DNA of 64,000 nt. Source: Escherichia phage vB-Eco-KMB43. A program made the translations under genes and the position numbers. The notes below the pieces were generated by a model. The model saw nothing but the letters and a program-made list of their open reading frames with translations, did not search any database and was not told the DNA's origin. How positions within the stretch are numbered: the stretch's first letter is position 1; every line of letters starts with the position of its first letter. Where the stretch lies: sequence record OR525698.1. One strand, written 5' to 3'. Shown here piece after piece: positions 3,205 to 62,685 of the stretch.

Positions 3205-5028
3205 TTATGATTGCATCCAAATTTTGCGCTGATCTGCATCTTCACTATAGAGCAAATCGAATAGCTCTTTATAGTTTTCCGGTAACGTGATGATCTCCAT
3301 GACAGGATCGTTGATCACGCGATGATAGTCTGATTCTGTGAGCGATGCTAAACCTTTGATATATCGAATGTTGTAACCTTTGATATTATCTCGATCGTTC
3401 TCGAAATCTTCTAGGTCATAATACCATCGAACATCATCACCTTTCTTTGGTTCCGCAATGATAATAGGTGTTTTGATAAACCGGATTCGTCCATCTTCGA
3501 ACAATTCAGGCCAACGAGCAAAGAAAGAGATCAGACTAGGTTTAATAGACCCGATCCCGTCAGTATCAGCGTCGGTCATAATCGCAATATTTTTGTATTG
3601 CATAACTTCCAATGCATCAACACCAAATTGCAAGCCTGTGATCGCCATGATGTTAAAAATTTCGGCGTTCTTAACGATCTTTGCCTCCGGTTGTTCCCAC
3701 GTTGTAAGAGTTTTACCTCGCAACGGGAAACCTCCATGTAAATCTTGATCGCGTACAGAGATCAGATAGTTGATCGCGGAATCACCTTCCGTCAAAAACA
3801 GGGTAGTTTCTGCGTCAGTTCCAATAAGGTTAGCTTTAACGTGTTTTGCCACCTTAGCCCGTTTTGCTGCCTTTGCTGCCTTAGTCGCTGCCGCTTTATC
3901 TGCTGCCTCTTTGCGTGCCAGGACGACAGCAATAATAGGCATGATAATGTTTTCTTTCTTCGCAATGACTTTAGCCAGCTTTTTAAAATCAAGATCAATA
4001 TGACGCTTGATATCACCAGTCGGGTTAGTCAAGCGTTCTTTTGTCTGTGAATCAAAACGAAGGTTAGGCAATTCACGAACAATAAGAATACAGGTCAATC
4101 CAGATTTAACCGCAGCTTTAGTAACATCAACCTTATATTCTTTCTTGATTCGTTTTACAATCTCTTCACAAAGATCATCTGTCACGTAGTCTACGTGTGT
4201 TCCCCCGTTTTTGGTAAACAGACCATTAGCAAAGGATACTGATTTAAAACCTTCTCCCTCGACCGCAGGAACTAGGGCAAGTGAAAAGTTTTTATCTTCA
4301 ATGACAAACGGATCATCATTGTATAGTTTAGCATAATCCTTGAACTTACTAACAATACGTTTACCATTAAACTTAAACGTGATCTTAGGAAATATTACGC
4401 TCAATGATTGCAGACGATCATGAACAATATCTAAAACAGAGTTGTCCATCATATAACCTTCGAAGTGGTCGAAGTCTGGGCAAAATGTAACCTTTGTTCC
4501 CTTCAATTTTGATGGTTTCGATGACCATGTGATATTTTCAGCACCGTTTGTACATTGAACGGTCATTTCTGTTTCGCCGTCACAGGTCACACCAGTAAAC
4601 CAATCGCTAAAGAAATTTGACAACGACGACCCCACACCGTTCATCCCTTGCGTTAATCGATTGGTATCATCAAAGTTAGACCCTGCTTTTGTTCGTGTCC
4701 ATGCGGCTACAGGTTGCGGAATCTGCGTACCCTCTGGGGTAGTAACCATATGTTGAGGAATACCGCGACCGTTGTCTGTTACCGTAACAATATTGTTTTG
4801 GATATCGACGCTAATCACATTGGCAAATTCAAAATTAGTGCGGATCGCCTCGTCTACAGAGTTGTCGATGATCTCATCAATGATTTTAACCAGTCCAGGA
4901 ACGTATGAAATTTTTGTCCACTTACCGAACAGGAAACGTTGATGTTCTTCGTAAGTTGTTGATCCTATATACATTCCTGCACGCTTAAGGACATGTTCAC
5001 GATCAGATAAAATGCGGAACTCACTCAT
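3205..5028 (-). CDS. 39: DNA topoisomerase II large subunit (GyrB-like ATPase), continuous gp39 plus gp60-equivalent
   Basis: 607 aa; N-terminus LKRAGMYIGST and DNGRGIP GHKL motifs; length matches fused 39+60 of non-T4 T-even-like phages. Confidence 0.85.
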   Translation of the reverse strand: MSEFRILSDREHVLKRAGMYIGSTTYEEHQRFLFGKWTKISYVPGLVKIIDEIIDNSVDEAIRTNFEFANVISVDIQNNIVTVTDNGRGIPQHMVTTPEGTQIPQPVAAWTRTKAGSNFDDTNRLTQGMNGVGSSLSNFFSDWFTGVTCDGETEMTVQCTNGAENITWSSKPSKLKGTKVTFCPDFDHFEGYMMDNSVLDIVHDRLQSLSVIFPKITFKFNGKRIVSKFKDYAKLYNDDPFVIEDKNFSLALVPAVEGEGFKSVSFANGLFTKNGGTHVDYVTDDLCEEIVKRIKKEYKVDVTKAAVKSGLTCILIVRELPNLRFDSQTKERLTNPTGDIKRHIDLDFKKLAKVIAKKENIIMPIIAVVLARKEAADKAAATKAAKAAKRAKVAKHVKANLIGTDAETTLFLTEGDSAINYLISVRDQDLHGGFPLRGKTLTTWEQPEAKIVKNAEIFNIMAITGLQFGVDALEVMQYKNIAIMTDADTDGIGSIKPSLISFFARWPELFEDGRIRFIKTPIIIAEPKKGDDVRWYYDLEDFENDRDNIKGYNIRYIKGLASLTESDYHRVINDPVMEIITLPENYKELFDLLYSEDADQRKIWMQS

Positions 5029-9489: not shown

Positions 9490-10008
9490 TTAGTAGCCGC
9501 GTTCTTGACGGGCGAAGTTTTCAGCATTTTTCAGATAGTATAGAATAAAGAGTTCTTGAGCGTCAATACCCAGCGGGATCATCTTTGACAGAATGAAGTG
9601 GATCGCGTCCACAAATTCAAATTTCACTTCAAGCTGATCTTCTGGTGACAGTTCAGAGAATTTACGCGCTCGCGCTTCCCCGTGGTTCTTTTTCCACATT
9701 TTCCAGATTGCACTTGCATCTTTACCATTTGACATGCCACCCAGCGATGTGTAAAGCTCTCGTGTTTCGTCTGCGATAGCGTCATCCATCCGTTGCATCC
9801 AATCCAACATTTCACCGCAAGTCTCTAGCTTAGTTGGATTTGGGACCCAATCAAATTTTTCGGATAATGCAACCTGCAAACCAGTTTGCATTTCGAGCAT
9901 CACCTGAAACGGATCTTTACCTTCTGCAATAGCGTGATGATATGCGGCGATAGCCGCGTTAATATCTTTTTCGTTAACCAGACCAGCACAAGAATTAAAT
10001 TCTGACAT
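9490..10008 (-). CDS. 56: dCTP pyrophosphatase, MazG-like
   Basis: N-terminus MSEFNSCAGL aligns with T4 gp56; EFVDAIHF MazG motif; ATG at 10008. Confidence 0.75.
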   Translation of the reverse strand: MSEFNSCAGLVNEKDINAAIAAYHHAIAEGKDPFQVMLEMQTGLQVALSEKFDWVPNPTKLETCGEMLDWMQRMDDAIADETRELYTSLGGMSNGKDASAIWKMWKKNHGEARARKFSELSPEDQLEVKFEFVDAIHFILSKMIPLGIDAQELFILYYLKNAENFARQERGY

Positions 10009-11058: not shown

Positions 11059-11622
11059 TCACTGTATATTTTTACTTCTCTGCTTTCCTATCCAGATCCG
11101 TCTAACTGTTTCCGCATTAACATCATATATTTTTGCGGTCTTTGCCGCAGATCCGGTTCCTTTTAGAGTTTTGATTTCTTCAATCTGATCTTTGGTTAAT
11201 TTAGCCCAATGGTGTGCATCACCATAACACGAACTCAGACCGTGTGTCAATGCATGAATCTGATTTTCTGATTGTGTAACCCATTCAAGATTATATAGGT
11301 CATGGTTTCTTTTGTTTCCATCGATATGATTAACAAACGGCAAATTGTTTACGTTTGGTATAAACGCTTCTGCTTTTGCTCTGTGTATGTATATCGATAG
11401 AGATTTAACCCTAGACCCTGAACTAGTTTTATTACCGTAAGGATCTCTGATTCTTGCTACGGCGTATCCACCGCTTCTTCCGGCTACAGATTCTCTATAA
11501 ATCTTTCCTGTTTTCTTGTTTCTAATGCGTCCATATGAGCTAACCTCGTAGCCTGGCATTTCGACGCCCATATAAACAAGGTCTTTCCATTCTTCTGGAT
11601 GTTCATCACAATACCGTTTCAT
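11059..11622 (-). CDS. HNH homing endonuclease (NUMOD4-like plus HNH)
   Basis: GYEVSSYGRIRN motif and VNHIDGNKRNHDLYNLEWVTQSEN HNH motif; inserted just downstream of primase gene. Confidence 0.75.
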   Translation of the reverse strand: MKRYCDEHPEEWKDLVYMGVEMPGYEVSSYGRIRNKKTGKIYRESVAGRSGGYAVARIRDPYGNKTSSGSRVKSLSIYIHRAKAEAFIPNVNNLPFVNHIDGNKRNHDLYNLEWVTQSENQIHALTHGLSSCYGDAHHWAKLTKDQIEEIKTLKGTGSAAKTAKIYDVNAETVRRIWIGKQRSKNIQ

Positions 11623-15037: not shown

Positions 15038-16108
15038 TTATGCTAACATATCTTCGATTTCTTTGTCAACTGCTTCGTCGCTGATCACTTGCCCCAGCTT
15101 ATAATGATCGTTGATTGCTTCGTTAAACTTATCGTTTGTCAGAAGTGGTTTCCAGAACTCAATGCTATTGGTTTCTTTAGCACGGAACTTGCGTTCTTCG
15201 GTTTCCATCTCTCCGGTCTCGGTATTTAGGATTGAACGAGAATACCAGCCGTTTGACGGTTTCACTACCCAGCCTAACTCTACAGCCAATTCCAGCAAGC
15301 CGGAATAAGGATCGATACCACCGCTAAATGTTACGCTAATCGGGAACTTAGATTTTTCTTTAACGGTTCGTGATTTTTCCGCATTCAGGATAAAATCATA
15401 ACCAGTAATTTCGGTTCCTTCTTTCTGCTGACGACGACCAATAATGAAAACTTCATTGGCTGAATACATCGCGCCCGTACCGCCGGACATAACGGTCTTA
15501 CTAAACATTTCTTGCGTTTCGTAAGTGTGGTTAATAGCGATGCACGGGATATCATTCATAGTCAGATATGGCGTCACCATACGGAACAAGCCTTTAAGTG
15601 CTTTAGCTCGCGTCATATCCTGTGCGGATTTCTCATTAATCGCGTCTTCAACTTCTTTTTTACTTGCTAAGTTACCGATTGAGTCAATAAAGATGATCAC
15701 TTTATCTTCACGGGTAATTTGCTCAAGCTGGTTCATGATTTCAAATTTAAGTTCTTCGATGTTCTTGATTGGAACATGCACTACGCGATCAGGATCTACA
15801 CCCATAGATTCAAGATAAGCGGGTGTAATACCGAACTCAGAATCAAAGAACAAACACGCCGCATCAGGATTCTGTTTCATGTATGCACTAACACAAGTTA
15901 ATCCCATGTTTGATTTAAAGTGCTTAGACGGACCAGCAAAGAAAATCAGACCAGATTGAAAGCCCTTTTTAAGATCACCTGAAAACGCAATATTCAGCAT
16001 CGGGATCTTAGTGCGAGTATTTGTTTTTTCGTTAAAGAAGCTGGATTTAGACAGTACCGCAGTAGTTTTCAGGGTAGAGTTCTTTTTCAGTTTTTCCAGT
16101 ACAGACAT
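15038..16108 (-). CDS. uvsX: UvsX recombinase (RecA-like)
   Basis: 356 aa; Walker A FAGPSKHFKS; T4 order. Confidence 0.9.
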   Translation of the reverse strand: MSVLEKLKKNSTLKTTAVLSKSSFFNEKTNTRTKIPMLNIAFSGDLKKGFQSGLIFFAGPSKHFKSNMGLTCVSAYMKQNPDAACLFFDSEFGITPAYLESMGVDPDRVVHVPIKNIEELKFEIMNQLEQITREDKVIIFIDSIGNLASKKEVEDAINEKSAQDMTRAKALKGLFRMVTPYLTMNDIPCIAINHTYETQEMFSKTVMSGGTGAMYSANEVFIIGRRQQKEGTEITGYDFILNAEKSRTVKEKSKFPISVTFSGGIDPYSGLLELAVELGWVVKPSNGWYSRSILNTETGEMETEERKFRAKETNSIEFWKPLLTNDKFNEAINDHYKLGQVISDEAVDKEIEDMLA

Positions 16109-16119
16109 TATTAATACCT

Positions 16120-16347
16120 CTATTCAGTTAATCCGTAATACTTTAATTGCTTCATTGTTATTCGATCTTTGTAGTGCTCTTGAATTAACTTTTTCATCGC
16201 ATCAACATCGATCGTCACAAATACTTCGTTGCTGTGATTTCCGTGAACTTTCTTGAAATGCTCTATGCCTTCCTCACGTTCACGTTTAATCTTTTCAATG
16301 TCTCTCATAATATATTTCTCACATTGGCGGGTATCGTAACCCAACAC
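16120..16347 (-). CDS. hypothetical protein (75 aa)
   Basis: only ORF between DNA polymerase and uvsX. Confidence 0.35.
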   Translation of the reverse strand: MLGYDTRQCEKYIMRDIEKIKREREEGIEHFKKVHGNHSNEVFVTIDVDAMKKLIQEHYKDRITMKQLKYYGLTE

Positions 16348-16369
16348 CCGCCATTATACACACTTTATC

Positions 16370-19048
16370 TTAAATGTCAAACAGGTCCGTAAGCGATGCC
16401 ACCTTTTCATATTGCAGCTTTGCAGCCGTGGTAATGTTCTCCAGTGGTTTGACGAAAGTCTTATTAAACAACAAAGGCCAGTCTAACCACTTTAACACCT
16501 CTGATTCAATTTCTGGAGGAATACGAGTACCGGACAACCAACCAAAACAGATTTCTCCAAACGGATTTCGGTCTTTAAGCGGTACAATCATAACCTTCTC
16601 GCCCTCACGAATTGGATCTAGTCCGAATTTTCGAGCATTACGATTATAACACAATACACTCTTAACCGCATACGGACAACCCTTAATCGGATACCCGTTT
16701 GAATCGCTGTATTTCTGTAGGTTGTTTGCGGATGATACCGCAGCAACCTCAAGATAGTCAAGTTTTCTAAATTCTTGCTCAAAAATACCGTAGTATTCCT
16801 GCAATGACTCTTCACCTTCCTGCAACATACGGCGAATACATTCTTTCAGTGATTTCTGACATGCTTTAGGGGTGGAGCTACGTTGCGTTTCCAAGCCCAT
16901 GATTTTTAGCTTAGGTTCAGCAAAGCGCGTTCCTTCCATATCCCAAACATTAAGAGCATAACGCTTTTTACCAGTCCAGAATCCACCGATACCCGCAGAT
17001 TTCAATGGAGGACCAGCAATTGCCTCACGGTCCATAAACATCAAGTGCTCATAGTTGTTCATGTACTCGCATAACTCGCGATATCCCTTGTCGATAATAG
17101 GTTCCATTCGATGTTTACCGAAATTATCAAGGAAGTCAACAAGTTTTTCGGTATCGTCGAAACGGTCTTCCCCGCCAACCTTATCAATAACATTGTTAAC
17201 CAGCACATAAACGGAGTCAGTATCACAATAACGAACATATGCAAAATCAGTTGTTCCGCAAAGTTCGTTTAAGTATTCGTTAATCTTACGCTCAATCCAC
17301 TGAATTGCAAGCTGACCAAACAAGGTGATCGCACTAGCGTTACGGAGATCATAAAAACGGAATTTAGGATTCCCCAACGCACCATAAAGGGAGTTGATCA
17401 AAACTTTTCGAGAAAGCTGGTTTGTATTGCACAAGATCGACTCGTCTTTACATTCTTCCAGCAATTTCTCTAAGGCATCTTTGCTCAATTCAGAAAGCAT
17501 CGATTTAAACGCTTCATCGAAGTCGTGACGCACTTCAACGCTATAGCTAATGGTTCCCCCATAAACATGATTTTCATCGTGTAGAATCGCTTTACAGAGT
17601 TCAGCATTGCGATCACATGCCAACATCATGTTTTTGTACTGCTTACGCTGATCGAATACCTTTTTAATCTCAATCGGTACGATACCGTGAATATCTTTTC
17701 TATACATCCATCCGTTAGGCGAGCAAGAATACTCATCACTCGGACGTGGTGCAGTTTTATTGATATACTCGTGCATCGGTGCAGCATCAAAAGATCCAGC
17801 GATTGTTTCAGGAGAAATATTAACCTGTCGAATAATAGATGGGTACAGACTTGTTAAGTCAAAGCTCATCATCCAACGGTAAGCATTCGGCACAGGTTCT
17901 TTTACGAATGCTCCTGGATACGTCTGCTTAGGCTGTATCTTGTTCTCTGGTACTACTTTACCCTCAGCTTTCAGAGATCCGAAGATAATAGCATCCCATA
18001 CTTTCATCGGGTTATAAACATGGTTAAATTTAATCTTTGCATAGAAACATAGACTATACACCAGATCAATAAAACCACGCTTTTTATCAATCGCCAGCAC
18101 ACGGTCAACGTCGCCGATGTTATAATCTATGTAAAGTTGATGGTTGTCATCACGCAATTTCTTTAACGGACCATCATAATCAACCTTACCGATTCCTGTC
18201 TCGTATTCAGCAACATAATCTAATGCATATGTTGGTTGAGTAGTAAAGCTAAATTTCTTGTACAGGTCAATATAATCAAGGCTTTCGATCCCCATGATCG
18301 TAAATGCTTCACGCTCGTTGCCAAAATCATCCTGCGAGATTCGGGATTTAATCTTACCGCACGGGCTTAGACGGTTAGCGGTTCTACTTCCGAACTTATT
18401 ACTGATACGTTTAATGATATATGGAATATCGAATGTTTCTGTGTTCCAGCCAGTGAAACCAACGGGTCGGTTTTCCTCAAAGAATCGGATGTATTCTAAC
18501 AGCAATTCATCTTCTGTGTCATAGACGTTATAAACAACGCGCTCTACAATATCAGGGCGAAGAATAGACTTGCTTGCTTCCCAGATTTCACCGTTTTTTC
18601 CTTTCAAATCAAATACAAAGAAACGATCATGTACGGAATCATAATGCGTAATAGCATCGATAGGATATTTCGCTTCTTCTGGTTTAGGAAATTCCGGTGC
18701 AGTGACCTCAATATCAACCCAGGCTACACGGATTTTATTTCGGTCATATCGAATCTCGCCTTTATATGTATCGGACAGATAGGAGATGATAAAATCATCC
18801 ATCCCTAGTGCCTCCTGCCCCATTTCTCCCATCTTTTTACGCCATTTGTTGGCCTCGTTCATAGATGGGAATTTTTTAGCAATGCAAGGCTTGCCATAGA
18901 TATCTTTATAATTCGTAACCATACCGGGCGCGGCATGATGAAATAAAGTTGGCGTATATTCAACGTAACGCTCTTGTTCTTGTCCAGCATCATCAATATA
19001 ACGCTCGTAGATCTTATCACCCACTCGCTCACATGACAGAAAATACAT
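16370..19048 (-). CDS. 43: DNA polymerase, family B
   Basis: YCDTDS motif C, exonuclease motifs; N-terminus aligns with T4 gp43 from internal ATG at 19048 (GAAGGAG RBS); track start 19078 is GTG. Confidence 0.9.
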   Translation of the reverse strand: MYFLSCERVGDKIYERYIDDAGQEQERYVEYTPTLFHHAAPGMVTNYKDIYGKPCIAKKFPSMNEANKWRKKMGEMGQEALGMDDFIISYLSDTYKGEIRYDRNKIRVAWVDIEVTAPEFPKPEEAKYPIDAITHYDSVHDRFFVFDLKGKNGEIWEASKSILRPDIVERVVYNVYDTEDELLLEYIRFFEENRPVGFTGWNTETFDIPYIIKRISNKFGSRTANRLSPCGKIKSRISQDDFGNEREAFTIMGIESLDYIDLYKKFSFTTQPTYALDYVAEYETGIGKVDYDGPLKKLRDDNHQLYIDYNIGDVDRVLAIDKKRGFIDLVYSLCFYAKIKFNHVYNPMKVWDAIIFGSLKAEGKVVPENKIQPKQTYPGAFVKEPVPNAYRWMMSFDLTSLYPSIIRQVNISPETIAGSFDAAPMHEYINKTAPRPSDEYSCSPNGWMYRKDIHGIVPIEIKKVFDQRKQYKNMMLACDRNAELCKAILHDENHVYGGTISYSVEVRHDFDEAFKSMLSELSKDALEKLLEECKDESILCNTNQLSRKVLINSLYGALGNPKFRFYDLRNASAITLFGQLAIQWIERKINEYLNELCGTTDFAYVRYCDTDSVYVLVNNVIDKVGGEDRFDDTEKLVDFLDNFGKHRMEPIIDKGYRELCEYMNNYEHLMFMDREAIAGPPLKSAGIGGFWTGKKRYALNVWDMEGTRFAEPKLKIMGLETQRSSTPKACQKSLKECIRRMLQEGEESLQEYYGIFEQEFRKLDYLEVAAVSSANNLQKYSDSNGYPIKGCPYAVKSVLCYNRNARKFGLDPIREGEKVMIVPLKDRNPFGEICFGWLSGTRIPPEIESEVLKWLDWPLLFNKTFVKPLENITTAAKLQYEKVASLTDLFDI

Positions 19049-19080
19049 AATATAAACTCCTTCACTTACGAAAGACACTC

Positions 19081-19109
19081 ATTATAGGGGAATCGACTTA
19101 GTTTGTCAA
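19081..19109 (-). promoter_or_regulatory. early promoter upstream of DNA polymerase gene (TTGACA, 17 nt, TATAAT)
   Basis: inverted repeat ATAGGGG/CCCCTAT flanks the element. Confidence 0.5.
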
Positions 19110-21829: not shown

Positions 21830-22207
21830 TTACGGGTTTACTGCGTGTTCGTTACGAATCTTGAGCATTTTGTTTTGGAAGTTTTCCGCAGCTTGCTCAT
21901 CAATAGCATGAGTATACTTAAATCCAATGTATGCTGTCAAGTATTGTTGCAGAGCATAGACAGTAACAGGATTCTTTGCGGTCTTCTTGCCTTCGAGATA
22001 TATCAGATCACCACGAACATCAAACGCAAGTTTACGACGAATCACATTATCAACAAACTCATCAACAACAAAATGCCAAATGTTGCTATCGGTTCCAATA
22101 TCAAAATTAATCACACAGCCTTGTTTGACATAATCAAACGGTATCGGGAATAGTTTATAGTCAAGTTCGATAAACATTAATTGTTCTTTTAAGCTCATAC
22201 GTTTCAT
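21830..22207 (-). CDS. hypothetical protein (T4 rpbA position)
   Basis: ORF upstream of gene 45; start chosen at ATG 22207. Confidence 0.35.
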   Translation of the reverse strand: MKRMSLKEQLMFIELDYKLFPIPFDYVKQGCVINFDIGTDSNIWHFVVDEFVDNVIRRKLAFDVRGDLIYLEGKKTAKNPVTVYALQQYLTAYIGFKYTHAIDEQAAENFQNKMLKIRNEHAVNP

Positions 22208-22211
22208 TCTA

Positions 22212-22604
22212 TCACTTCCCATCAGCAATTGCGATCAGACGAGTTACTACTACGCTAGCGGCTTCAATCAGCAGTTCATCAGTGTCAATCTGATAACCCT
22301 TTTCGAGAATATCTTTACCTCGAATAGTTTTAGCGCCTTTAGCAATTGAATCATCGTAATACTTGCGCATTGCCGCGATCCATTCTTTTTGCACCATATC
22401 ATCAATATGCGCGTACAGTTCAAAGCGTGCTTGCTGCGGGATAACCTTCATTTTAGCTTTCTCGCTTTCTGGCATTTGTAGTACCCACGCTTTACGGATC
22501 TTGTTCATTGCTCGGTCAAATTCGAGACTGGTTTTCTTGTTCTGAATGTCTGCTACAGTAATTTTAGCCAGGTTTGCGGAAGTAGTCATAATATTAATCT
22601 CCAA
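22212..22604 (-). CDS. hypothetical protein (130 aa)
   Basis: ORF between 46 and 45. Confidence 0.4.
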   Translation of the reverse strand: MEINIMTTSANLAKITVADIQNKKTSLEFDRAMNKIRKAWVLQMPESEKAKMKVIPQQARFELYAHIDDMVQKEWIAAMRKYYDDSIAKGAKTIRGKDILEKGYQIDTDELLIEAASVVVTRLIAIADGK

Positions 22605-22619
22605 AATAAAATCAGTATA

Positions 22620-22850
22620 TCACGTTCTAAAGTTTGTTGCAACCCCAGCATCAGGGTAATCAAGTTTATCAAAGTTGGGGACCAGCATAAACTCATGATG
22701 ACGACAAGACAACATTTTTGTTATGTCTGCATCGCTGTATATGCTGTTTTTCATATCCCCCATACTAACTACATATTCTTCACCGGAATATAGATTGATT
22801 AAGGTATACAATTCTAACTCCGGCTGCGTCACTCTGTCAAATGTTAACAT
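22620..22850 (-). CDS. hypothetical protein (76 aa)
   Basis: small ORF overlapping the 3' end of gene 46. Confidence 0.3.
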   Translation of the reverse strand: MLTFDRVTQPELELYTLINLYSGEEYVVSMGDMKNSIYSDADITKMLSCRHHEFMLVPNFDKLDYPDAGVATNFRT

Positions 22851-24519
22851 TCATTTCAGTGAATCGCCCACGTTTAACCATCTTGAGATGACGGCTAAAA
22901 TCATCAGGGTTATGGTCACGATGGCTGATAATATACACGTTATCATCTAACTTGTCAATGATGGAATCAAGTGCTTTTACGCCTTGAACATCCGTAGCCC
23001 CATCATAAATTTCGTCGAGTACCAACAAAGAAATATTAGTACCAGATACTTTACCAGCAACATCACGCCATGTAAAGAGCATCGCAAGGTCAATACGTGC
23101 CTTTTCGCCTTGACTGAATGATGTATACGAAAACGATTCACGCCCCCGTGATTTGATTGTTTCGTTAAACTCTTCATCTAGCGTAAAGATATAATCCGCT
23201 TCCATAATATCAAGATAATACGCAATCCGATCATTGAAATATGGAATATATTTCTTGACGATAGACGCCTTAACACCGGAATCCTTCAACATTTCTGTTA
23301 CAAATCCACGGTGATATTTTTCAAGAACTAGCTTTGATTTTTCATTAGTAATCTCTACCAGTTCGTGTTCCAGTTTAGCAAGTTCTTCGGAATTGTCAAC
23401 CCTTTCTTTTTGCAATTCCTGCATTGCTTTCTGGATCTGTTTAGCACGACCTACAGATGCCGTTAAATTCGCTCTCTGTGACTCTATATCGCGTTTAATT
23501 TCCAAGACCTTAGTTTGTGCTGCCTGGAAAGAATTTGCTTTCTCGGCGTATTCTACGCGTTTCTCGTCAATCAGAGACAGTTTATGTTCCGCTTGTGCTT
23601 TTTGTTCGCGTACAGTCTGATCATTACCCTGAATGATCGGTTGTGTGCACGTAGGACAGATCCCGCCTTTCTCGTGCATATGGATAACACGGTCAAAGTT
23701 CTGGATCTGCGCACCAATCTGTGCGATAGCAGTATTAATTTTAGCCAATACCGCGCTAGGATCTTCCGGCATGACAACAGCCAATAGCTCATCGGTCAAG
23801 CGCGTTTCTTCGGCTTTAAATGCTTTAGCCGATTCTACCTCTTTATCATACATATTCTGTAAACGCTGGAGATTCTCGGCACTCGCCTTGCTAGCGTCTT
23901 CTATGTACTTTTTATGAGTGTTGATTTGTTGCTGAACGTGATTAGCTTTCATTTCCTGCATTTGGATATTCTGGGTAATCTCGCGCACATACGCTTTATT
24001 CAGTTTATCCATTTCGCCTAGCGTAGCAATATCAAGCAAATCCTCGACCAGTTTACGGCGACCCGCTGCCGGAAGACTCATAAACGGAACATAACCAGCA
24101 GTGCCTAAAACAACGATCTGTTTGAAGCTGGCTAGGTTCATGCCTATGATACCTTCAAAATATTCCTGAAAGTCTTTGGTGCTTGCGCTCTCGTCGATCT
24201 TTTGACCGTCGCGATGCACTTCGAATACTTCCGGTTTTTGACCACGTTTTATATAAAACTCTTTCCCGTCCAGTTCAAACCAGACTTCGACTAACAGTTT
24301 CTTTTTGTTGACGCTGTTAATCAATTGGCCTTTCTTGATACTACGAAACGGTTTACCGAACAACACAAAGCAAAGCGCCTCGATCATTGTTGATTTACCA
24401 GCACCGTTAACACCAGTGATTAGTGTCTTTTTGAATCCGTCTAGCTGAATCTCAACAGGTTCAGCACCCACGCTCATTATATTTTGATAGCGCAAGGTTT
24501 TAAAATTTAACTTTGCCAT
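22837..24519 (-). CDS. 46: recombination nuclease subunit, Rad50/SbcC-like ATPase
   Basis: N-terminus MAKLNFKTLRYQNIMSVG and Walker A GVNGAGKS align with T4 gp46; ATG at 24519; track start is TTG. Confidence 0.85.
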   Translation of the reverse strand: MAKLNFKTLRYQNIMSVGAEPVEIQLDGFKKTLITGVNGAGKSTMIEALCFVLFGKPFRSIKKGQLINSVNKKKLLVEVWFELDGKEFYIKRGQKPEVFEVHRDGQKIDESASTKDFQEYFEGIIGMNLASFKQIVVLGTAGYVPFMSLPAAGRRKLVEDLLDIATLGEMDKLNKAYVREITQNIQMQEMKANHVQQQINTHKKYIEDASKASAENLQRLQNMYDKEVESAKAFKAEETRLTDELLAVVMPEDPSAVLAKINTAIAQIGAQIQNFDRVIHMHEKGGICPTCTQPIIQGNDQTVREQKAQAEHKLSLIDEKRVEYAEKANSFQAAQTKVLEIKRDIESQRANLTASVGRAKQIQKAMQELQKERVDNSEELAKLEHELVEITNEKSKLVLEKYHRGFVTEMLKDSGVKASIVKKYIPYFNDRIAYYLDIMEADYIFTLDEEFNETIKSRGRESFSYTSFSQGEKARIDLAMLFTWRDVAGKVSGTNISLLVLDEIYDGATDVQGVKALDSIIDKLDDNVYIISHRDHNPDDFSRHLKMVKRGRFTEMNVNI

Positions 24520-25926: not shown

Positions 25927-26952
25927 CTAACTTTTTGCGTTATTCACTTCGGCTAAAAGTTCATCAGAAATACGCTTGACCGCCGCAAGTTCTTCCGGTT
26001 CTAGGTTTTGTTCTTCCAGATATTCATAGACCATCTGAATAGTGCTTTTAACTTCAATAACACCTGTTTCCTGTGATGCGCTACTCTCCAGTTTATGGAC
26101 CACTTTTAGCTTGTGTACAACGGCCTCTAACGCGCTTTCTAACTTAGTTAATCCATTATCAGCGACCGTTGCGATAAGACGCACACTAAGCCCTTTAAAG
26201 CGTTCTACATCGATTTTATCATCTGACGGGTAAGTGATACGCACATGATAAGTTTTGTCATTCTGAATAAACTCTTTTTTGTGTGTATCGGTATCGAATA
26301 CCCAAAAACCACGCGGATCGTTTTCGTCACCCGCCGTTAGTGTGTATGGTGTACCAATATACGTTACGTTACCGCCATCACTGATAGTATGAAAGTGACC
26401 CGAAAACACTTCACGGTATTTCTTGAGGAAGTCCGCGCTATAACCTTCGGATTTTAGCCCTTTATAGAAATAGTAACCGGACAATTCCCAATGGCCTACA
26501 CAATATTCGCTGAATGAGTTTTGAATAAACTCTAAAACCTCTGATTTATTGTCATCACAAAACCACGGGAACAGATCAAATGATACACCATCAAAGGTAA
26601 CTGTTTCCGGTTTATCGATAACCTTAATGCAATCATACTGGCTTAACACTTCACGCGGTGCGTTAGGCTGGATCTTGTTTCGTTTAAACATATCATGATT
26701 CCCGACCGTTATATAACAAGTAATACCAGCCTCTTCCAGTAACGGGATGACCTTAGTACGGTTAAATTTCATGGTTTCATGGGTAATTGCTTTTCGGCAA
26801 TCAAACCAATCCCCTGTTTGAATCCATGTCTTAATATTATGCTCTTTGGAGTATTCAACCGCTTTCTTGATGGTATCAAGAATATACTCATGCACCCACG
26901 GATCATCGCCACCGATACCAGTATGCAGATCACCTAAAAGCAAAATTTTCAT
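25927..26952 (-). CDS. 47: recombination nuclease subunit, Mre11/SbcD-like phosphoesterase
   Basis: 341 aa; calcineurin-like motifs GDLHTG, GNHD. Confidence 0.85.
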   Translation of the reverse strand: MKILLLGDLHTGIGGDDPWVHEYILDTIKKAVEYSKEHNIKTWIQTGDWFDCRKAITHETMKFNRTKVIPLLEEAGITCYITVGNHDMFKRNKIQPNAPREVLSQYDCIKVIDKPETVTFDGVSFDLFPWFCDDNKSEVLEFIQNSFSEYCVGHWELSGYYFYKGLKSEGYSADFLKKYREVFSGHFHTISDGGNVTYIGTPYTLTAGDENDPRGFWVFDTDTHKKEFIQNDKTYHVRITYPSDDKIDVERFKGLSVRLIATVADNGLTKLESALEAVVHKLKVVHKLESSASQETGVIEVKSTIQMVYEYLEEQNLEPEELAAVKRISDELLAEVNNAKS

Positions 26953-27043: not shown

Positions 27044-27331
27044 TTACAGCATACTTAATACCGTTTGCCGTGTACTAATCCACATAGCAGAAAGCAGTTC
27101 TGGCGTGTGTGGCTGTTTGTAGATATCACGTAATTTTCCGATAGCGTAGATATACGCATCACGATTATCATCGATGATAGCTTGTTCAGCCCACCGCTTA
27201 AGGCGTGCAATCTCTCGCGAGTTCTTACGCAAGATCTTTTCCGCTTTCTTAGCGGCTTTAGCCTCTAGTTCTGCTTGTACTTTGTCTACTTCATTCACTG
27301 CAATCTGGTCATGCTGTTCATCGTAAGTCAT
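27044..27331 (-). CDS. hypothetical protein (95 aa)
   Basis: ORF between 55 and 47, where T4 has alpha-gt. Confidence 0.35.
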   Translation of the reverse strand: MTYDEQHDQIAVNEVDKVQAELEAKAAKKAEKILRKNSREIARLKRWAEQAIIDDNRDAYIYAIGKLRDIYKQPHTPELLSAMWISTRQTVLSML

Positions 27332-27332
27332 G

Positions 27333-27566
27333 TTATTTTCCTTCTGGGATATAGTCGATGATTAAAGAAAATTCATCTTCTGATACATTATAGCTATGTG
27401 AGATTGTACCCGTCAAGACCTCAAGATCCGGTGATTTGATATTGCACGGATCGATAATCACCGGAACGCCGCAATCTCTCAAAAATAATTTGGCGAAATA
27501 CGGCACAAGGTCAGTTTCAAACTCTGCTTCTTCCAGCAAACGGGAAATGTTAATTTTCAATCTCAT
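27333..27566 (-). CDS. hypothetical protein (77 aa)
   Basis: ORF between 55 and 47. Confidence 0.3.
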
Positions 27567-28083
27567 AAAATTGGTCCAAGCTAGGCAATTCCTCGGTCAA
27601 TACATCTTCAACCTTTGGCGCTTTCGGTTTATTGACCGATTCCTCGTAGTTGTTGATTTTATCGTAAATGTCCTGTATGAATGCCTCATCAGCAATCTGG
27701 CACATATCAGCGTCGCGTTCGTCATATACATGATGCACAAAATATTTGTATTTTGCGGCTGTCGCTGTTCTCTCTTTTTTAATGCGCTGTACAAAAGCAT
27801 TAAAGCACGCTTGCGTGATGTAAGCATGAGGATTTTTATACTTTGTCTCGTCAAAATTAATCAAACCCTTGACCGCCGCTTCGATTCCATCGTCGATCAT
27901 TTCTTCGCGCCATGTTTGACTATAACCAGAAAAGTTAAAACGACGTGATAGATTTTTAGAGATTTGCATAATTGCCAGGCCGATTTGATCGCTCATTGGC
28001 ACTTGTCGACCTTCTGCCGCAATTCGTTGTTTCCAACGGCAAATTTCTTCGTAAAGCTCTTTATTGTTTACATAATCAGACAC
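27550..28083 (-). CDS. 55: late transcription sigma factor
   Basis: YVNNKEL...RFNFSGY...[22 protein letters not shown] nearly identical to T4 gp55; GTG start with GAGGGTG RBS. Confidence 0.85.
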
Positions 28084-28123: not shown

Positions 28124-29593
28124 CTATTCCCCATTACCATTATACTTTCTTTGCTTAGTTATCCACACTCTAACCATCTCTACAGATTCACCGTCAGACG
28201 GATCAAGAGTTTTTCCTTTTTTCTTCATGCGGTACTTAAATCCGTTAAATCTTGCATTCTCTTGCTCGTTAAAATCGAACATCTTTTTAAATGATTTTCG
28301 CCCTTTACGCTCACCACATTCTAGCGGAATCATCCGATCTGTTATTACATTGGCATTAGGCAGAAACGTTTTTAGATAATCTACCAACGCCCAATCAGGA
28401 ACATATAGATTAACATTCTCCTTGCTCTCGTTGTCTCTCAAGTTACAACGCAAACATAATTGAAATGCTGGTTCCAGATAATCAGACACATGACGCGCTT
28501 TCAAAAACTCATTTGTTGGGAGATCACAACTATTAGCAAGACCTTTTAAAATATCAATCTCCCATCGTTGAGGGTTAAAGCTGAACATCACAGCAACATT
28601 TTTATGATGAATGTAAGAGTTAAGACCATAAGACCCGTAAGGTATCCGCTCACCAATACCATTTGTGCACGCTTCACGGTCCCGATTCACGGTATAAATG
28701 AAGTCATCACCACATTCATTTTTAACCATATCAACAAGACGTTCAAAGGTATTGTTTGTTTCTGACTGGTGACGCGACCATCGTTCGGAGTCCGTCATAA
28801 GGATGATATTAACTCTATCTGTATTTTTATACTCTTTGAAATATAGTCTGGATTCTAGCGCACTCGGAACAAAATCGCAATTTGCATAGTATCGTAGATA
28901 CTTCCCGCTATATGTATCAAAGAGATTTGCACATGCTATCGTAACCTTTTTAAAGTCTCCCCACGTACCGTGTTTGTTATCGTTCAAGAAAACAATTTTC
29001 GACCCATTCTTCCGGTGTCCTTCGTTATGTTTTACCATAACGTTGATTTTCTTCTCTAATAACGCCTCATAAAGCCCTCTAAGAGAAGAATCGATCATAT
29101 CAGTACCATCCTTCGCACTTTCTATCTTTTCTTTGATAGCGGCCTTCTCAGAGTCTTTTAGAACTAAGTTCTGTAGGCATTCCGATTCGTCGGCGATTGG
29201 TTCGCAATGCTTCGTGATAAGTTCAAGATTAGACTTAAACGGATACTCATTAAATTCAACCAGTTGAGGAACTTCATCAATGTAAAGAGCATAATCACCA
29301 AACATTTTTGAACGTTCCATATTAGATAACGCTGTATGTGTAATGAATATCACATCAGCACCATCTTTAACTGATTGCATTATCGACGCTTGCACTGTCT
29401 TAAGGCTTCTTAGTCTGGTGCTATCAATCAAGACAGCACGACCGCCCATTCTTTTAAACTTATTGTAAGATTGTTCACTTAAAACACGAGATGGCGAAGC
29501 AATAACCGCTTTTTCTTTTGTCTCTAGGACGTGGGAAAGTATAGCATCAGTTTTCCCCGCCGCTGGCAATGCGATTAATGTTTCAATCTTCAT
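28124..29593 (-). CDS. P-loop NTPase of unknown function (489 aa), Cys-rich C-terminal half
   Basis: Walker A ALPAAGKT at residues 8-15, SF2-like Ia PSRVLSEQ, Walker B LYIDEVPQ; no T4 counterpart recognised. Confidence 0.5.
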   Translation of the reverse strand: MKIETLIALPAAGKTDAILSHVLETKEKAVIASPSRVLSEQSYNKFKRMGGRAVLIDSTRLRSLKTVQASIMQSVKDGADVIFITHTALSNMERSKMFGDYALYIDEVPQLVEFNEYPFKSNLELITKHCEPIADESECLQNLVLKDSEKAAIKEKIESAKDGTDMIDSSLRGLYEALLEKKINVMVKHNEGHRKNGSKIVFLNDNKHGTWGDFKKVTIACANLFDTYSGKYLRYYANCDFVPSALESRLYFKEYKNTDRVNIILMTDSERWSRHQSETNNTFERLVDMVKNECGDDFIYTVNRDREACTNGIGERIPYGSYGLNSYIHHKNVAVMFSFNPQRWEIDILKGLANSCDLPTNEFLKARHVSDYLEPAFQLCLRCNLRDNESKENVNLYVPDWALVDYLKTFLPNANVITDRMIPLECGERKGRKSFKKMFDFNEQENARFNGFKYRMKKKGKTLDPSDGESVEMVRVWITKQRKYNGNGE

Positions 29594-39943: not shown

Positions 39944-40699
39944 TTATACCTCATTCAGTTCTATATCAAGTTCATTTTCAATAATATAGGCATTAACTGC
40001 CCGTGCCGCATCATCTTCTGTGTCAAATCTTCCTATATACACACCGCGAACTTTAGCACCGTAATTACCTTGTTTTGGTACTTTGTAAACGTATCTATGA
40101 CGGGAACTTGCTGCTTTTTGGAGCTTCTTGCCATATTCAGACTTTGCATATTCTATATCATCAATCTCGTTTATACAAGACCTATCACCAAAATGTTTCA
40201 ACGCGGCAAGATTATATGCATACGCCGCGCCGATCTCGGAGGGAAAATATCCTAAATGTATCGACTTCCCATCCAACATTATTGCACCAGTCCAATAACC
40301 TTTATTCTTATTAAACGACACACCTTTATACTTCGAATATGTTTTGCATTTGGTCTTGCTCATATTCATATTATTTTGTTTGCGTGTCGTCTCTCTAAGG
40401 TTTTCAATGCGGCTATTATAACGATCTCGGTCTTTATGATCTATATACTTAGGACAATGACCATGAAACATATGATAGATAACACGGTGCATACGTTCGT
40501 ATCGCTCGCCAGTCCATACAATACGATACCCATCGGGGGTATCACTTCCAGCTAATCCGTTTATAACACCTTTTCGGTGCGGGTGAATCTTCCACCTAAG
40601 AAAACCATCATCATAATAAAACCGTGAATGATATAAATCATATAAACGTTTATCTTCTGGAGTCTTGTGTATAACCTCATATTTTAACATTGGTGACAT
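39944..40699 (-). CDS. HNH homing endonuclease with AP2-like DNA-binding domains
   Basis: HRVIYHMFHG...IDHKDRDRYNSRIENLR HNH motif; YKGVSF..GYW...AAYAYNLAALKHFG and YRGVY...AARAVNAY AP2-like modules. Confidence 0.75.
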   Translation of the reverse strand: MSPMLKYEVIHKTPEDKRLYDLYHSRFYYDDGFLRWKIHPHRKGVINGLAGSDTPDGYRIVWTGERYERMHRVIYHMFHGHCPKYIDHKDRDRYNSRIENLRETTRKQNNMNMSKTKCKTYSKYKGVSFNKNKGYWTGAIMLDGKSIHLGYFPSEIGAAYAYNLAALKHFGDRSCINEIDDIEYAKSEYGKKLQKAASSRHRYVYKVPKQGNYGAKVRGVYIGRFDTEDDAARAVNAYIIENELDIELNEV

Positions 40700-41492
40700 A
40701 AACTTCCTTAGTATCGGATTTTTTACCCCCGCTACGATCTAAACAATATGTTTTATCCAGTTCAACAACAGAAACATCATTACGTTCGATAAAATCGAGC
40801 AAATGGTTGTTAACTTTCCCTTTGTGGTGAGTAACATTGCTTAATCCAAACTTAGCACCGCTAGACATTAATGATTCTATCCACATGTAGAATTTAATCT
40901 CTTCTTCTTCACTCCAGAACTTATTATATTCTGCCGACGTGATCCAATATGGCGGATCAAGGAAAACGAAATCACCTGGCAAGATCTCGATCTCGTCATA
41001 GCGACCAGACGTAAAACTGATTCGACCGTCTTTGTTTTCTTCCTTAAAATTCAGGACACGCTCTACCGCGTTTTCGTTAAAAGTCCGGCGACCAAAATTA
41101 GCATTAAATTCGCCCTTCCGGTTATGGCGGTTAATGTTGCTAAAACTATGCTGAATCAACACAAACAGCGATAGCGGATCTGGATTCTCATTATACTTCT
41201 TACGGAATGCCATGTAAGCGTCTTTATCTTCGCGAGACAAACCATTTTCGGCAATAATCCGCTTGATCGTAGAAACCGGATCAGGACACTCGTCAATGGC
41301 CTTGTAAGCGTCAATTAAGCGGTGATCATAGTCATTAGCCAGCACATCCCCTTCGACGTACAGAGACACGCTCAAGCCGCCACAAAAGGCATCAACAAAG
41401 CGGTTATAGTGCTTAGGGAAATACTTACTAACACCGGGCAATAACTTTTCCTTATTGCCAGTATAGGGAATTAAACCTAATGCTTTCTTCAT
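40677..41492 (-). CDS. dam: DNA adenine methyltransferase
   Basis: 271 aa; FxGxG-like DAFCGG and catalytic DPPY motifs. Confidence 0.8.
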   Translation of the reverse strand: MKKALGLIPYTGNKEKLLPGVSKYFPKHYNRFVDAFCGGLSVSLYVEGDVLANDYDHRLIDAYKAIDECPDPVSTIKRIIAENGLSREDKDAYMAFRKKYNENPDPLSLFVLIQHSFSNINRHNRKGEFNANFGRRTFNENAVERVLNFKEENKDGRISFTSGRYDEIEILPGDFVFLDPPYWITSAEYNKFWSEEEEIKFYMWIESLMSSGAKFGLSNVTHHKGKVNNHLLDFIERNDVSVVELDKTYCLDRSGGKKSDTKEVYVTNVKI

Positions 41493-54618: not shown

Positions 54619-55194
54619 TTATTTTGGATCTGGGAAATTCAATAGAGCATATTCTCCATAAAATTTCCTAGCTGCATTATCATAAGCGATTGCAGCTTCG
54701 ATTTCTGTGTCATATTGTCCAAGAACATGTCTTTGTAGGTTGACCATTATACTAGCTCTCCATTTCTTACGCAAATCCTTCCTGTTACACTTACTAACAC
54801 CCTTATACACACTAGAAAACTTTTTAGACTTCTTCTTTCTATTATGTTGATTTTGCGCGTCGGTTGCCTCCCTAAGATTTGGAGGATTGTTATTAGCAGG
54901 ATTACCGTCAATATGATCAATTAATCTAACTTGCGTCCCATGTTCTAGAAACCAAACAACCCTATGCACGAATAAATGAACTCTAGGAAGACCGTCATCT
55001 CTACTATGCCAAAATCGAAGATGACCATCTTTATTTGTTCTGACTTTAACTAAATCGCCGTGTTTATATCTACTCCCTAATGGTCGTCCTTTGATAGCTT
55101 TACTATCGACTCTATAATATAAGATACCCTCTATATGAGCATATCTAAGTTTTATCTCGTTTTGTAGGGATTCATCCCAATATTTAAAAGCCAT
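54619..55194 (-). CDS. HNH homing endonuclease with AP2-like domain
   Basis: HRVVWFLEHG...IDHIDGNPANNNPPNLREAT HNH motif; YKGVS...GQYDTEIEAAIAYDNAARKFYG AP2-like module. Confidence 0.75.
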   Translation of the reverse strand: MAFKYWDESLQNEIKLRYAHIEGILYYRVDSKAIKGRPLGSRYKHGDLVKVRTNKDGHLRFWHSRDDGLPRVHLFVHRVVWFLEHGTQVRLIDHIDGNPANNNPPNLREATDAQNQHNRKKKSKKFSSVYKGVSKCNRKDLRKKWRASIMVNLQRHVLGQYDTEIEAAIAYDNAARKFYGEYALLNFPDPK

Positions 55195-62028: not shown

Positions 62029-62685
62029 TTAAATGTTCGCGAGAATCGCGCTTTCAAATTCTTCTAATGTACCATTATTTATGATAATGGTTTCACTGTC
62101 AATAGGCAAAATTCCTTTTTCGGTGGAGTGAGTCGATACAATACCAGTATCACGCTGAATATGCAACACCTTAGCACCCATAGCACGCACGAGAGCAATT
62201 TCAATAGGCTGACGCACATCAACCACTACAAAATAACCTTCTTCATTTTTGCGCTTCATAAACTCATTAACGAAGAGATTACACCAATAAAGCGGATTGA
62301 TCAAGTTAACCATTATATCAGTACCGAGAGTGGTTAACATGAGACGAATAGACCAGACGTTATTATGTTTTTCGCCAATCTCATTAACGACCTTGTAAAT
62401 CTCAGCCAGACGATCACAAGTAAAGGAACTACCTCCATACTTCGAATCTAGCATAAGCAGACACTGAATAAACCACTTATGCGCGGTATAGGTATCAATA
62501 CCTAGATCGGATTCTCTGTCACGCCCTAACCCGTCAAAGTCAAGATAAGTCAGACCTAAGTCTGGTTGACATTCGCACAATATTTCTTTGATCGGTGCTG
62601 CCAGTTGATAACTATGTCCATCAATGATTAACGCGGCAGTGTCTTTTCCTACTCGCTTTTTACCACAAAGTGCAATCAATTTCAT
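62029..62685 (-). CDS. 1: deoxynucleoside monophosphate kinase
   Basis: MKLIALCGKKRVGKDT P-loop and LGTD...RQ..E...RAMGA align with T4 gp1. Confidence 0.8.
   Translation of the reverse strand: MKLIALCGKKRVGKDTAALIIDGHSYQLAAPIKEILCECQPDLGLTYLDFDGLGRDRESDLGIDTYTAHKWFIQCLLMLDSKYGGSSFTCDRLAEIYKVVNEIGEKHNNVWSIRLMLTTLGTDIMVNLINPLYWCNLFVNEFMKRKNEEGYFVVVDVRQPIEIALVRAMGAKVLHIQRDTGIVSTHSTEKGILPIDSETIIINNGTLEEFESAILANI

Follow-up and report, generated by a model that had tools for sequence, protein, structure and literature searches.

In phage T4, gene 43 (DNA polymerase) and uvsX (recombinase) are separated by 3635 bp that carry imm.1, imm, 42, b-gt, and segA. In Escherichia phage vB-Eco-KMB43 (OR525698.1), the same junction measures 261 bp. 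What does so short a junction contain, do the genes that T4 keeps there reside elsewhere, and what does their absence say about the cytosines of this phage? We addressed these questions in a stretch of 64,000 nucleotides of the phage's DNA (hereafter, the window), which represents ~39% of a 164-kb genome and extends from rIIA to gene 3.

A query of 7 kb taken around the junction matched 58 phage records, all of which are RB49-type Krischvirus coliphages (95 to 99% identical) and among which are RB49, Phi1, JSE, and GEC-3S. With the RB49-type phages, the window shares 98 to 99% nucleotide identity over 7 kb, and it is collinear gene by gene with the RB49 annotation (AY343333 / NC_005066), both sequences beginning at rIIA. 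The window has a GC content of ~40%, and almost all of its genes lie on the minus strand. Neither tRNA nor tmRNA genes were detected in the window by ARAGORN, and an Rfam scan of the entire window at the gathering threshold gave zero matches. We identify the window as the early/replication region with which a Krischvirus genome (RB49-type, “pseudo-T-even”) begins. The RB49-like organization proposed in the first-pass annotation of this DNA is borne out by the identity to Krischvirus records and by the collinearity with RB49. From rIIA on, RB49, Phi1, and JSE have the same gene order as the window, also have no tRNAs, and share with it an unsplit gene 39, dam, a gene 56 homolog, and, between genes 43 and uvsX, an open reading frame (ORF) of 62 amino acids (RB49ORF025c) with an annotated early promoter. 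The sole difference is in homing-endonuclease content: the HNH genes at 11059-11622, 39944-40699, and 54619-55194 of the window are not at those sites in RB49, while RB49ORF040c, located between gene 47 and a-gt.4 in RB49, is not in the window.

Positions 16109-16369 (261 bp) are the exact interval from the uvsX start codon (16108) to the gene 43 stop codon (16370). The two flanking genes and the three features that make up the contents of the gap are as follows.

16370..19048, minus strand: gene 43, family B DNA polymerase (55% identity to T4 gp43 over 903 aa)
16353..16380, minus strand: sigma-70 early promoter with a perfect match to the consensus (12/12; TTGACA at 16380-16375 and TATAAT at 16358-16353, spaced by 16 nt)
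16325..16353, minus strand: GC-rich hairpin UGGCGGGUGUUG-GGUUA-CGAUACCCGCCA, with a 12-bp stem, adjoining the -10 box
16120..16308, minus strand: hydrophilic 62-aa ORF, homolog of RB49ORF025c (coding 16123-16308, stop codon 16120-16122)
15038..16108, minus strand: uvsX, RecA-like recombinase (64% identity to T4 UvsX)

The assignments of the flanking genes agree with their domains: the gene 43 product matches Pfam DNA_pol_B and DNA_pol_B_exo1 as well as phrog_262 and is collinear with the RB49 annotation, and the UvsX product matches Pfam T4_UVSX_C (4.7e-35) and RecA. The annotated ATG start of gene 43 is at 19048; an in-frame GTG further upstream, at 19078, is unlikely to be used. Except for a few substitutions, the gap is collinear base for base in the window, in RB49, and in another Krischvirus, SAP. 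The gap is a small regulatory and ORFan unit, not a functionless deletion scar.

The first-pass annotation had stated that T4 places beta-gt, 42, and imm between uvsX and 43, which the T4 annotation confirms, and that none of the three is present between these genes here. Searches with the T4 proteins (tblastn) likewise find none of them in the gap. We carried out these gene-absence searches against the window and also against two closely related genomes, those of RB49 and SAP, in their entirety. For T4 b-gt, a-gt, Imm, Imm.1, segA, and 47.1, there was nothing below an E value of 0.5 in the window or in the whole RB49 genome. Imm had zero matches in either at E ≤ 10; a-gt likewise had none in the window up to that limit, and in the whole RB49 genome the best match to a-gt had an E value of 1.8. 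In the SAP genome, b-gt, a-gt, Imm, and Imm.1 also gave nothing below E = 0.5, and T4 segA matched SAP's own homing endonuclease (3e-18). For T4 gp42, the best match in the window (E value of 3.9) is not a homolog, and the sole match in the whole RB49 and SAP genomes is the thymidylate synthase Td (E values of 0.006 to 0.008), whose gene lies outside the window. The residue at the position of gp42 D179 separates dUMP from dCMP enzymes, with Asn specifying dUMP. In RB49 Td (410 aa), N321 is aligned to gp42 D179, and the catalytic Cys lies in a CHPF motif. Because of Asn321 and the CHPF motif, we conclude that the phage's sole protein of the thymidylate synthase family is a true thymidylate synthase; the Asn at the specificity position and the thymidylate synthase-type motif rule out Td as a disguised hydroxymethylase.

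Other genes of the T4 cytosine-modification system show a mixed distribution. With Alc, DenB, and Arn, the searches of the window, RB49, and SAP returned nothing below E = 0.05, and Ndd, MotA, and AsiA are absent as well; homologs of DenA and Cd are present. Across ~40 ORFs of the window, including every unknown ORF of at least 120 aa, Pfam searches found zero glycosyltransferase domains and zero thymidylate-synthase-like domains. In RB49-type phages, gene 42, a-gt, b-gt, alc, and denB are reported absent and gene 56 present (PMC2993671, Table 4), and another gene survey agrees with that distribution (PMC12115623). Two genes of nucleotide metabolism are present in the window.

9490..10008, minus strand: gene 56 homolog, dCTPase/dUTPase family (49% identity to T4 gp56, full length; Pfam dUTPase_2; phrog_173)
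62029..62685, minus strand: gene 1, dNMP kinase (Pfam DNMK, 1.5e-67; RB49 annotation)

The phage keeps these gp56 and gene 1 homologs despite lacking gene 42; in T4, both belong to the hmC pathway. Overall, the window lineage has in common with the T4 hmC system homologs of gp56 (49% identical), gp1, DenA, Cd, and Dam, along with the syntenic flanking genes 43, uvsX, 47, a-gt.4, a-gt.5, and 55, whereas gp42, alpha-gt, beta-gt, Alc, DenB, and Arn are missing from it.

Could gene 42 and the glucosyltransferases have been relocated outside the 64-kb window? The window covers only ~39% of the 164-kb genome, and dam does occupy a different locus than in T4. However, the search of the rest of the genome that the first-pass annotation had called for, here carried out on the complete RB49 and SAP genomes, was negative for T4 gp42, a-gt, b-gt, and Imm, save for the match of gp42 to Td, and the published surveys agree on the absence (PMC13390438, PMC2993671, PMC12115623). 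Relocation is therefore exceedingly unlikely. This absence from RB49-type phages is already known, since it has been published both that these phages are without gene 42 and the glucosyltransferases and that RB49 cytosine is unmodified; it is a textbook distinction that separates pseudo-T-even from T-even phages. Our result is useful for annotating the window, and nothing new follows from the gene absence as such.

The second location at which T4 carries a glucosyltransferase gene is between genes 47 and 55, where the T4 annotation places 47.1, alpha-gt, mobB, and a-gt.2 to a-gt.5, in agreement with the first-pass annotation. In the window, the interval is laid out as follows.

25927..26952, minus strand: gene 47, Mre11/SbcD-like nuclease subunit (56% identity to T4 gp47)
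27044-27331, minus strand: a-gt.4 homolog (tblastn to T4 a-gt.4, 3.4e-12)
27333-27566, minus strand: a-gt.5 homolog (tblastn to T4 a-gt.5, 2e-7)
27550..28083, minus strand: gene 55, late sigma factor (61% identity to T4 gp55)

The window has no alpha-gt and no mobB in this interval, whose sole ORFs are the homologs of a-gt.4 and a-gt.5. These are the small ORFs that had been noted there in place of alpha-gt, and they can now be named.

Two further genes had been taken to mark an RB49-like organization. The first of them encodes the large subunit of topoisomerase II.

3205..5028, minus strand: unsplit gene 39, large subunit of topoisomerase II, corresponding to T4 gp39 + gp60 (607 aa)

Residues 1-475 of T4 gp39 align to 5034-3607 and residues 31-158 of gp60 to 3603-3214, in one uninterrupted frame, and the four GyrB-type domains HATPase_c, DNA_gyraseB, Toprim, and TOPRIM_C are all found by Pfam in one protein. 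T4 mobA and 60.1 have no match in the window. Because the gp39 and gp60 alignments abut in frame and mobA and 60.1 are unmatched, gene 39 is unsplit and has no bypass gap, exactly as described from its single 607-aa ORF. The protein is homologous to those of T4 genes 39 and 60 (57% identical to gp39 and 55% to gp60), but the T4 genes are split by a mobA insertion and joined by a 50-nt translational bypass, whereas the window has a single continuous ORF without the mobA/60.1 insertion or the bypass gap. The RB49 record likewise notes that RB49 gene 39 corresponds to T4 gp60 plus gp39, divided in T4 by an insertion. Relatives of T4 usually have gene 39 unsplit. The split genes 39 and 60 of T4, with their bypass element, are a special case, and the unsplit gene is the common state in the Krischvirus group.

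The second gene is dam.

40677..41492, minus strand: dam, D12-class N6-adenine DNA methyltransferase (45% identity to T4 Dam; MethyltransfD12, 1.3e-29)

Its presence, as given in the first-pass annotation, is upheld by the similarity to T4 Dam. The use of dam as a pointer to unmodified cytosine is not: T4 has Dam too, and because T4 DNA is fully modified, Dam says nothing about the status of cytosine.

What the 43-uvsX gap does contain is a compact regulatory element. The -35 box of its promoter sits within the last codons of gene 43, and the RB49 record annotates the same promoter as a hypothetical early promoter. Near-consensus promoters are strongly skewed in orientation across the window (35 on the minus strand versus 1 on the plus strand). 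The first base of the hairpin is the last T of the -10 box. Its 12-bp stem is kept in the centroid structure (-22.2 kcal/mol; z = -3.0 in a 101-nt context). The hairpin escaped a simple terminator scan, as no T-run (U-tract) comes after the stem, and for this reason we call it an attenuator or stabilizer, not a canonical intrinsic terminator. About 15 nt past the hairpin, a purine-rich GUGAGAAAUAUAUUAUG provides a Shine-Dalgarno sequence leading into the 62-aa ORF.

We recognize the promoter and the hairpin as a PeSL (promoter-early stem-loop) element with predicted promoter and attenuator activity. It combines an intergenic near-consensus sigma-70 promoter, an adjacent stem-loop of a G-run and a C-run, and a Shine-Dalgarno sequence with the start of a small ORF. 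Its partner upstream of gene 43 is the other promoter with a 12/12 match (19109-19081); in RB49 and phi1, gene 43 is bordered on both sides by PeSLs (Arbiol et al. 2010, PMC2839356). Promoter and terminator activities have been shown experimentally for other PeSLs, namely those at 193/192, 206/205, and 211/210 (PMC2839356). The window element resembles the RB49 and phi1 PeSLs (PMC2839356; Comeau et al. 2014, PMC4122927) in its TTGACA-N16-TATAAT promoter, G-run/C-run stem-loop, Shine-Dalgarno sequence, and small ORF start. It differs from them in three respects. The -10 box is followed immediately downstream by the stem-loop, whereas the commonest positions are between the -35 and -10 boxes or in overlap with the latter; where an “AT-rich region” usually lies upstream, this element has the final part of the coding sequence of gene 43; and its ORF is fixed across the genus, while PeSL-associated ORFs are otherwise variable.

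The overlap of promoter and hairpin suggests how the element may work. Read-through RNA from gene 43 would hold the complete hairpin and might be attenuated or stabilized at its 3′ end there. Transcripts from the PeSL promoter would begin within the 5′ arm, which would leave them unable to form the hairpin, and would continue into the small ORF and uvsX, allowing their early expression.

The stop codon of the 62-aa ORF is 11 nt from the ATG of uvsX. The ORF is present in 58 of the 58 Krischvirus records, with 95 to 100% conservation, and matches phrog_12120 (4e-42), a family of unknown function; a Pfam search with it gave zero matches. A word-indexed homolog search returned 4 near-identical clusters only, and an exhaustive HMMER search of 1.84 billion representatives returned just 8 relatives, all of them free-standing proteins of 56 to 77 aa, so the latter search gives no functional annotation. 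The conserved core of the family reads R..AIEHFKK.HGNHS.EV.V.ID...YKGR. In Salmonella phage Akira, the homolog of the ORF stands alone as a gene of 60 aa (51% identical). The module forms, in Klebsiella phages KpTDp1 and BUCT791, the in-frame N-terminal ~52 residues of a 430-aa DUF2800 / PD-(D/E)XK (Cas4-like) nuclease (48% identical to the 62-aa ORF; pairwise E value of 1e-14), in a helicase-polymerase gene neighborhood. Given this nuclease fusion and the position between polymerase and recombinase genes in Krischvirus, we suggest that the 62-aa ORF may encode a replication or recombination accessory module. The fusion is the first functional hint for an ORFan conserved between these genes. 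An AlphaFold2 single-sequence model of the protein has three helices and is too poor for a fold search (pLDDT of 66, pTM of 0.32). The idea that the ORF is an analogue of Imm was rejected: T4 Imm has no tblastn match, and the sequence is highly charged, without a hydrophobic stretch.

Did the Krischvirus ancestor lose a T4-like cassette at the 43-uvsX junction, or did the T-even phages gain one? If the compact junction arose by secondary loss, the PeSL would be a recombination scar. PeSLs have been proposed to mediate the excision and insertion of cassettes (PMC2839356, PMC4122927), and the retention of the hmC-pathway partners gp56, gene 1, denA, and cd, as well as of a-gt.4 and a-gt.5, the neighbors of alpha-gt in T4, would fit such a loss. 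However, uvsX and 43 are adjacent within ~2.1 kb in Klebsiella phages phiKp_16 and KMI9, Citrobacter phage CfP1, and Aeromonas phage Aeh1; no leftover sequence of 42, beta-gt, or imm can be detected; and, because the small ORF is fixed throughout the 58 Krischvirus records, the junction bears no sign of recent turnover. We consider secondary loss unlikely, though well worth weighing. Tequatrovirus matches fall in two places, and a Dhakavirus has ~1 kb extra that includes imm. Since the adjacency of uvsX and 43 in other, distant T4 relatives makes the compact junction widespread, we propose that it may be the ancestral state and that the T-even cassette may have been inserted later.

The cytosines themselves have been characterized experimentally in two relatives. 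Neither the hydroxymethylase nor beta-gt is present in RB49, and HpaII and NheI cut the DNA of this phage, which accordingly contains no hmC or ghmC (PMC4041780). Krischvirus TB34 has canonical cytosine as determined by HPLC-MS (PMC13390438). The TB34 annotation shows split structural genes, suggesting indel errors.

A further line of evidence comes from hexamer palindromes. By maximal-order Markov expectations, 52 palindromes should occur 5 or more times in the window, and 13 of these 52 are wholly missing from it. In the whole RB49 genome, 19 of 60 are missing, in contrast to 0 of 38 in T4 (1-45 kb). The deficits in the window are large (observed/expected: TCCGGA, 0/25.3; AAGCTT, 0/15.5; GAATTC, 0/15.1; AGCGCT, 0/13.9; ACCGGT, 0/13.2; GGATCC, 0/12.9). 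Only 4 of 3648 non-palindromic hexamers are absent, and these belong to a small depleted set that resembles type IIS or degenerate restriction sites (for example, CTGAAG, ACTGGG, and RCCGGY). Every purged site contains G/C, while palindromes made of A and T alone are undepleted, and the SAP genome has the same pattern. The Dam target GATC is not avoided in Krischvirus (377 observed versus 346 expected); in the T4 segment, it is strongly avoided (56 versus 150). In our interpretation, this purge marks a lineage in which cytosines lie exposed to type II restriction. The phage would cope with restriction by purging type II sites, with Dam covering GATC, rather than by modifying its bases.

The purge is of a familiar kind. 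The avoidance of restriction sites in phages with unmodified DNA is a well-known general phenomenon, reportedly treated by Sharp (1986), Rocha (2001), and Rusinov (2018). As in the window, it takes the form of a near-total loss of short G/C-containing palindromes and of some type IIS sites, while non-palindromic words are unaffected. In our literature search, we found no paper that describes site avoidance for RB49 or Krischvirus, and the comparison of Krischvirus with T4 provides an unusually clean contrast within one phage family.

One report runs against unmodified cytosine. In a 2026 paper on the Durham Collection, Krischvirus SAP is described as having hmC, glucosyl-hmC, and gentiobiosyl-hmC, with about one third of 5-hmdC and two thirds of alpha-gentiobiosyl-mdC, and as being cut by the type IV enzyme BrxU (PMC13390438). 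SAP and the window are 97.5% identical and agree in their layout between 43 and uvsX and between 47 and 55. SAP is also 99.96% identical to the unmodified TB34, and no gene-content difference, pathway genes, or informative SNPs were found (PMC13390438). Because SAP is reported as modified with an identical layout, gene absence is strong but not absolute proof of unmodified cytosine.

It could be hypothesized that the cytosines of the phage are modified by a cryptic pathway, non-homologous to gp42 and the glucosyltransferases and encoded among the unknown ORFs. SAP would exemplify it, as it is reported modified even though genes for an hmC synthase or glycosyltransferases are undetectable (PMC13390438), an absence that we confirmed in its genome. 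The retention of the gp56 and gene 1 homologs and the many window ORFs without a recognizable domain would be compatible with such a pathway. However, RB49 and TB34 are unmodified by experiment (PMC4041780, PMC13390438), and TB34 equals SAP in gene content; the purge of G/C-containing sites is genus-wide and includes SAP, although there would be little selective reason for it if cytosines were hypermodified; and Alc, DenB, and Arn, the companions of hmC genomes, are absent. Moreover, seven Tequatrovirus phages of this collection have the same modification profile as SAP (PMC13390438). Given this match, a mixed or mislabeled DNA preparation is plausible, and it would be the simplest alternative explanation of the SAP data. 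We regard a cryptic pathway in the window phage as very unlikely. That Krischvirus can, under some condition or with some allele, make fully hydroxymethylated and glycosylated cytosine, by means of a cryptic non-homologous pathway in the early ORFs from nrdD to rIIA, seems exceedingly unlikely to us.

In favor of unmodified cytosine, as the first-pass annotation had proposed, the restriction digests of RB49 (PMC4041780), the HPLC-MS of TB34 (PMC13390438), and the palindrome purge agree. Together, they provide strong evidence, short of absolute proof, that the virion cytosine of this phage would be unmodified. Taking these observations jointly, we conclude that the window very probably derives from a Krischvirus with a compact replication/recombination cluster, both cassette sites essentially empty, ordinary cytosine, and purged restriction sites.

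These observations suggest that, within the same family, two anti-restriction strategies would exist: T4 hypermodifies its bases and does not avoid sites, whereas Krischvirus would keep ordinary cytosine and has purged ~20 hexamer sites. The purge gives a criterion, read from sequence alone, by which modified DNA may be predicted in T4-like phages, and it bears on the 2026 report of a modified Krischvirus.

Restriction sites were examined in the window, RB49 (segments L001, L002, L004 and L005), SAP (L006 to L009) and T4 (L003). Across the whole window, hexamer palindromes containing G or C are subject to an extreme purge, with 13 of the 52 testable sites at zero counts. The missing sites include, among others, those of HindIII, EcoRI, BamHI, BspEI, AgeI, AfeI, ScaI, PvuII, NcoI, KpnI, SphI and SacII. 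Only 4 of the 3,648 non-palindromic hexamers are missing from the window, and these, CTGAAG and RCCGGY among them, look like recognition sites of the type IIS or degenerate kind. We found no avoidance of hexamer palindromes whatever in the T4 1-45 kb segment. The two phages also differ in their treatment of GATC, although both encode Dam: the tetramer is strongly under-represented in the T4 1-45 kb segment (56 observed versus 150 expected), whereas the Krischvirus window shows no avoidance of it (377 observed versus 346 expected).

Three genes of nucleotide metabolism were located, one of them in RB49 outside the window:

9490-10008, minus strand: full-length gp56 dCTPase/dUTPase homolog, 49% identical to that of T4
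62029-62685, minus strand: gene 1 dNMP kinase
RB49 136870-138102 (21870-23102 of segment L005): Krischvirus thymidylate synthase, 410 aa

The gp56 homolog and gene 1 are both kept in a genome without gene 42. Because an efficient dCTPase would be counter-productive to a cytosine-DNA phage, the specificity of the gp56 homolog has presumably moved towards dUTP. By-eye comparison of the thymidylate synthase with the 286-aa T4 Td revealed an apparent insertion of roughly 140 residues (at about residues 120-260); the catalytic Cys and the dUMP-specifying Asn are both kept.

Two further proteins are encoded in the window:

16123-16308, minus strand: 62-aa ORF between gene 43 and uvsX
28124-29593, minus strand: RB49ORF044c homolog (489 aa) between genes 55 and 55.2

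The 62-aa ORF is a member of a very small family sharing the core IEHFKK.HGNHS.EV.V.ID..YKGR, which is also found in a free-standing homolog (2947-3129 of L011) and in Klebsiella phages KpTDp1 and BUCT791 (2968-4266 of L012 and 2468-3760 of L013). Because in the Klebsiella phages the same module is the N-terminal, in-frame part of a 430-aa DUF2800/PD-(D/E)XK Cas4-like nuclease, we suggest a replication or recombination accessory role for the 62-aa ORF. The RB49ORF044c homolog, the largest uncharacterized protein of the window, strongly matches phrog_2467 (function unknown), and its N-terminus weakly matches a DEAD-box helicase (Pfam DEAD at 3.4e-6, scoring 27.3 bits where the cutoff is 26 bits).

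Near-consensus sigma-70 promoters (at most 1 mismatch) in the window number 35 on the minus strand versus 1 on the plus strand; minus-strand examples lie at 19109, 16380, 9482, 5118, 3201, 43789, 46087 and 58254. Many of the minus-strand promoters carry promoter-early stem-loops (PeSLs), with G-run/C-run stems lying within the spacer or spanning the -10 box, and have the recurrent leader ACACCCATCGAAACGAAACAC after them. In the whole window, no Rfam family reached its gathering score and no tRNA or tmRNA genes were detected, the latter being consistent with the tRNA-less genomes of Krischvirus.

The window carries free-standing HNH homing-endonuclease genes, combining HNH_3 with a NUMOD4 or AP2 domain, at three sites where RB49 has none:

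11059-11622, minus strand
39944-40699, minus strand
54619-55194, minus strand

Conversely, the window lacks the HNH-AP2 gene ORF040c, which in RB49 lies between 47 and a-gt.4 (RB49 26380-26934). These differences are typical homing-endonuclease turnover in genomes that are otherwise 98% identical. In another relative, TB34, the gp4 head completion protein and the gp7 baseplate wedge are each annotated as two CDSs (L010, TB34 150001-165220). The splitting of these conserved structural genes suggests indel errors in the TB34 assembly; such errors would make the published comparison of SNPs between SAP and TB34 less clear-cut.
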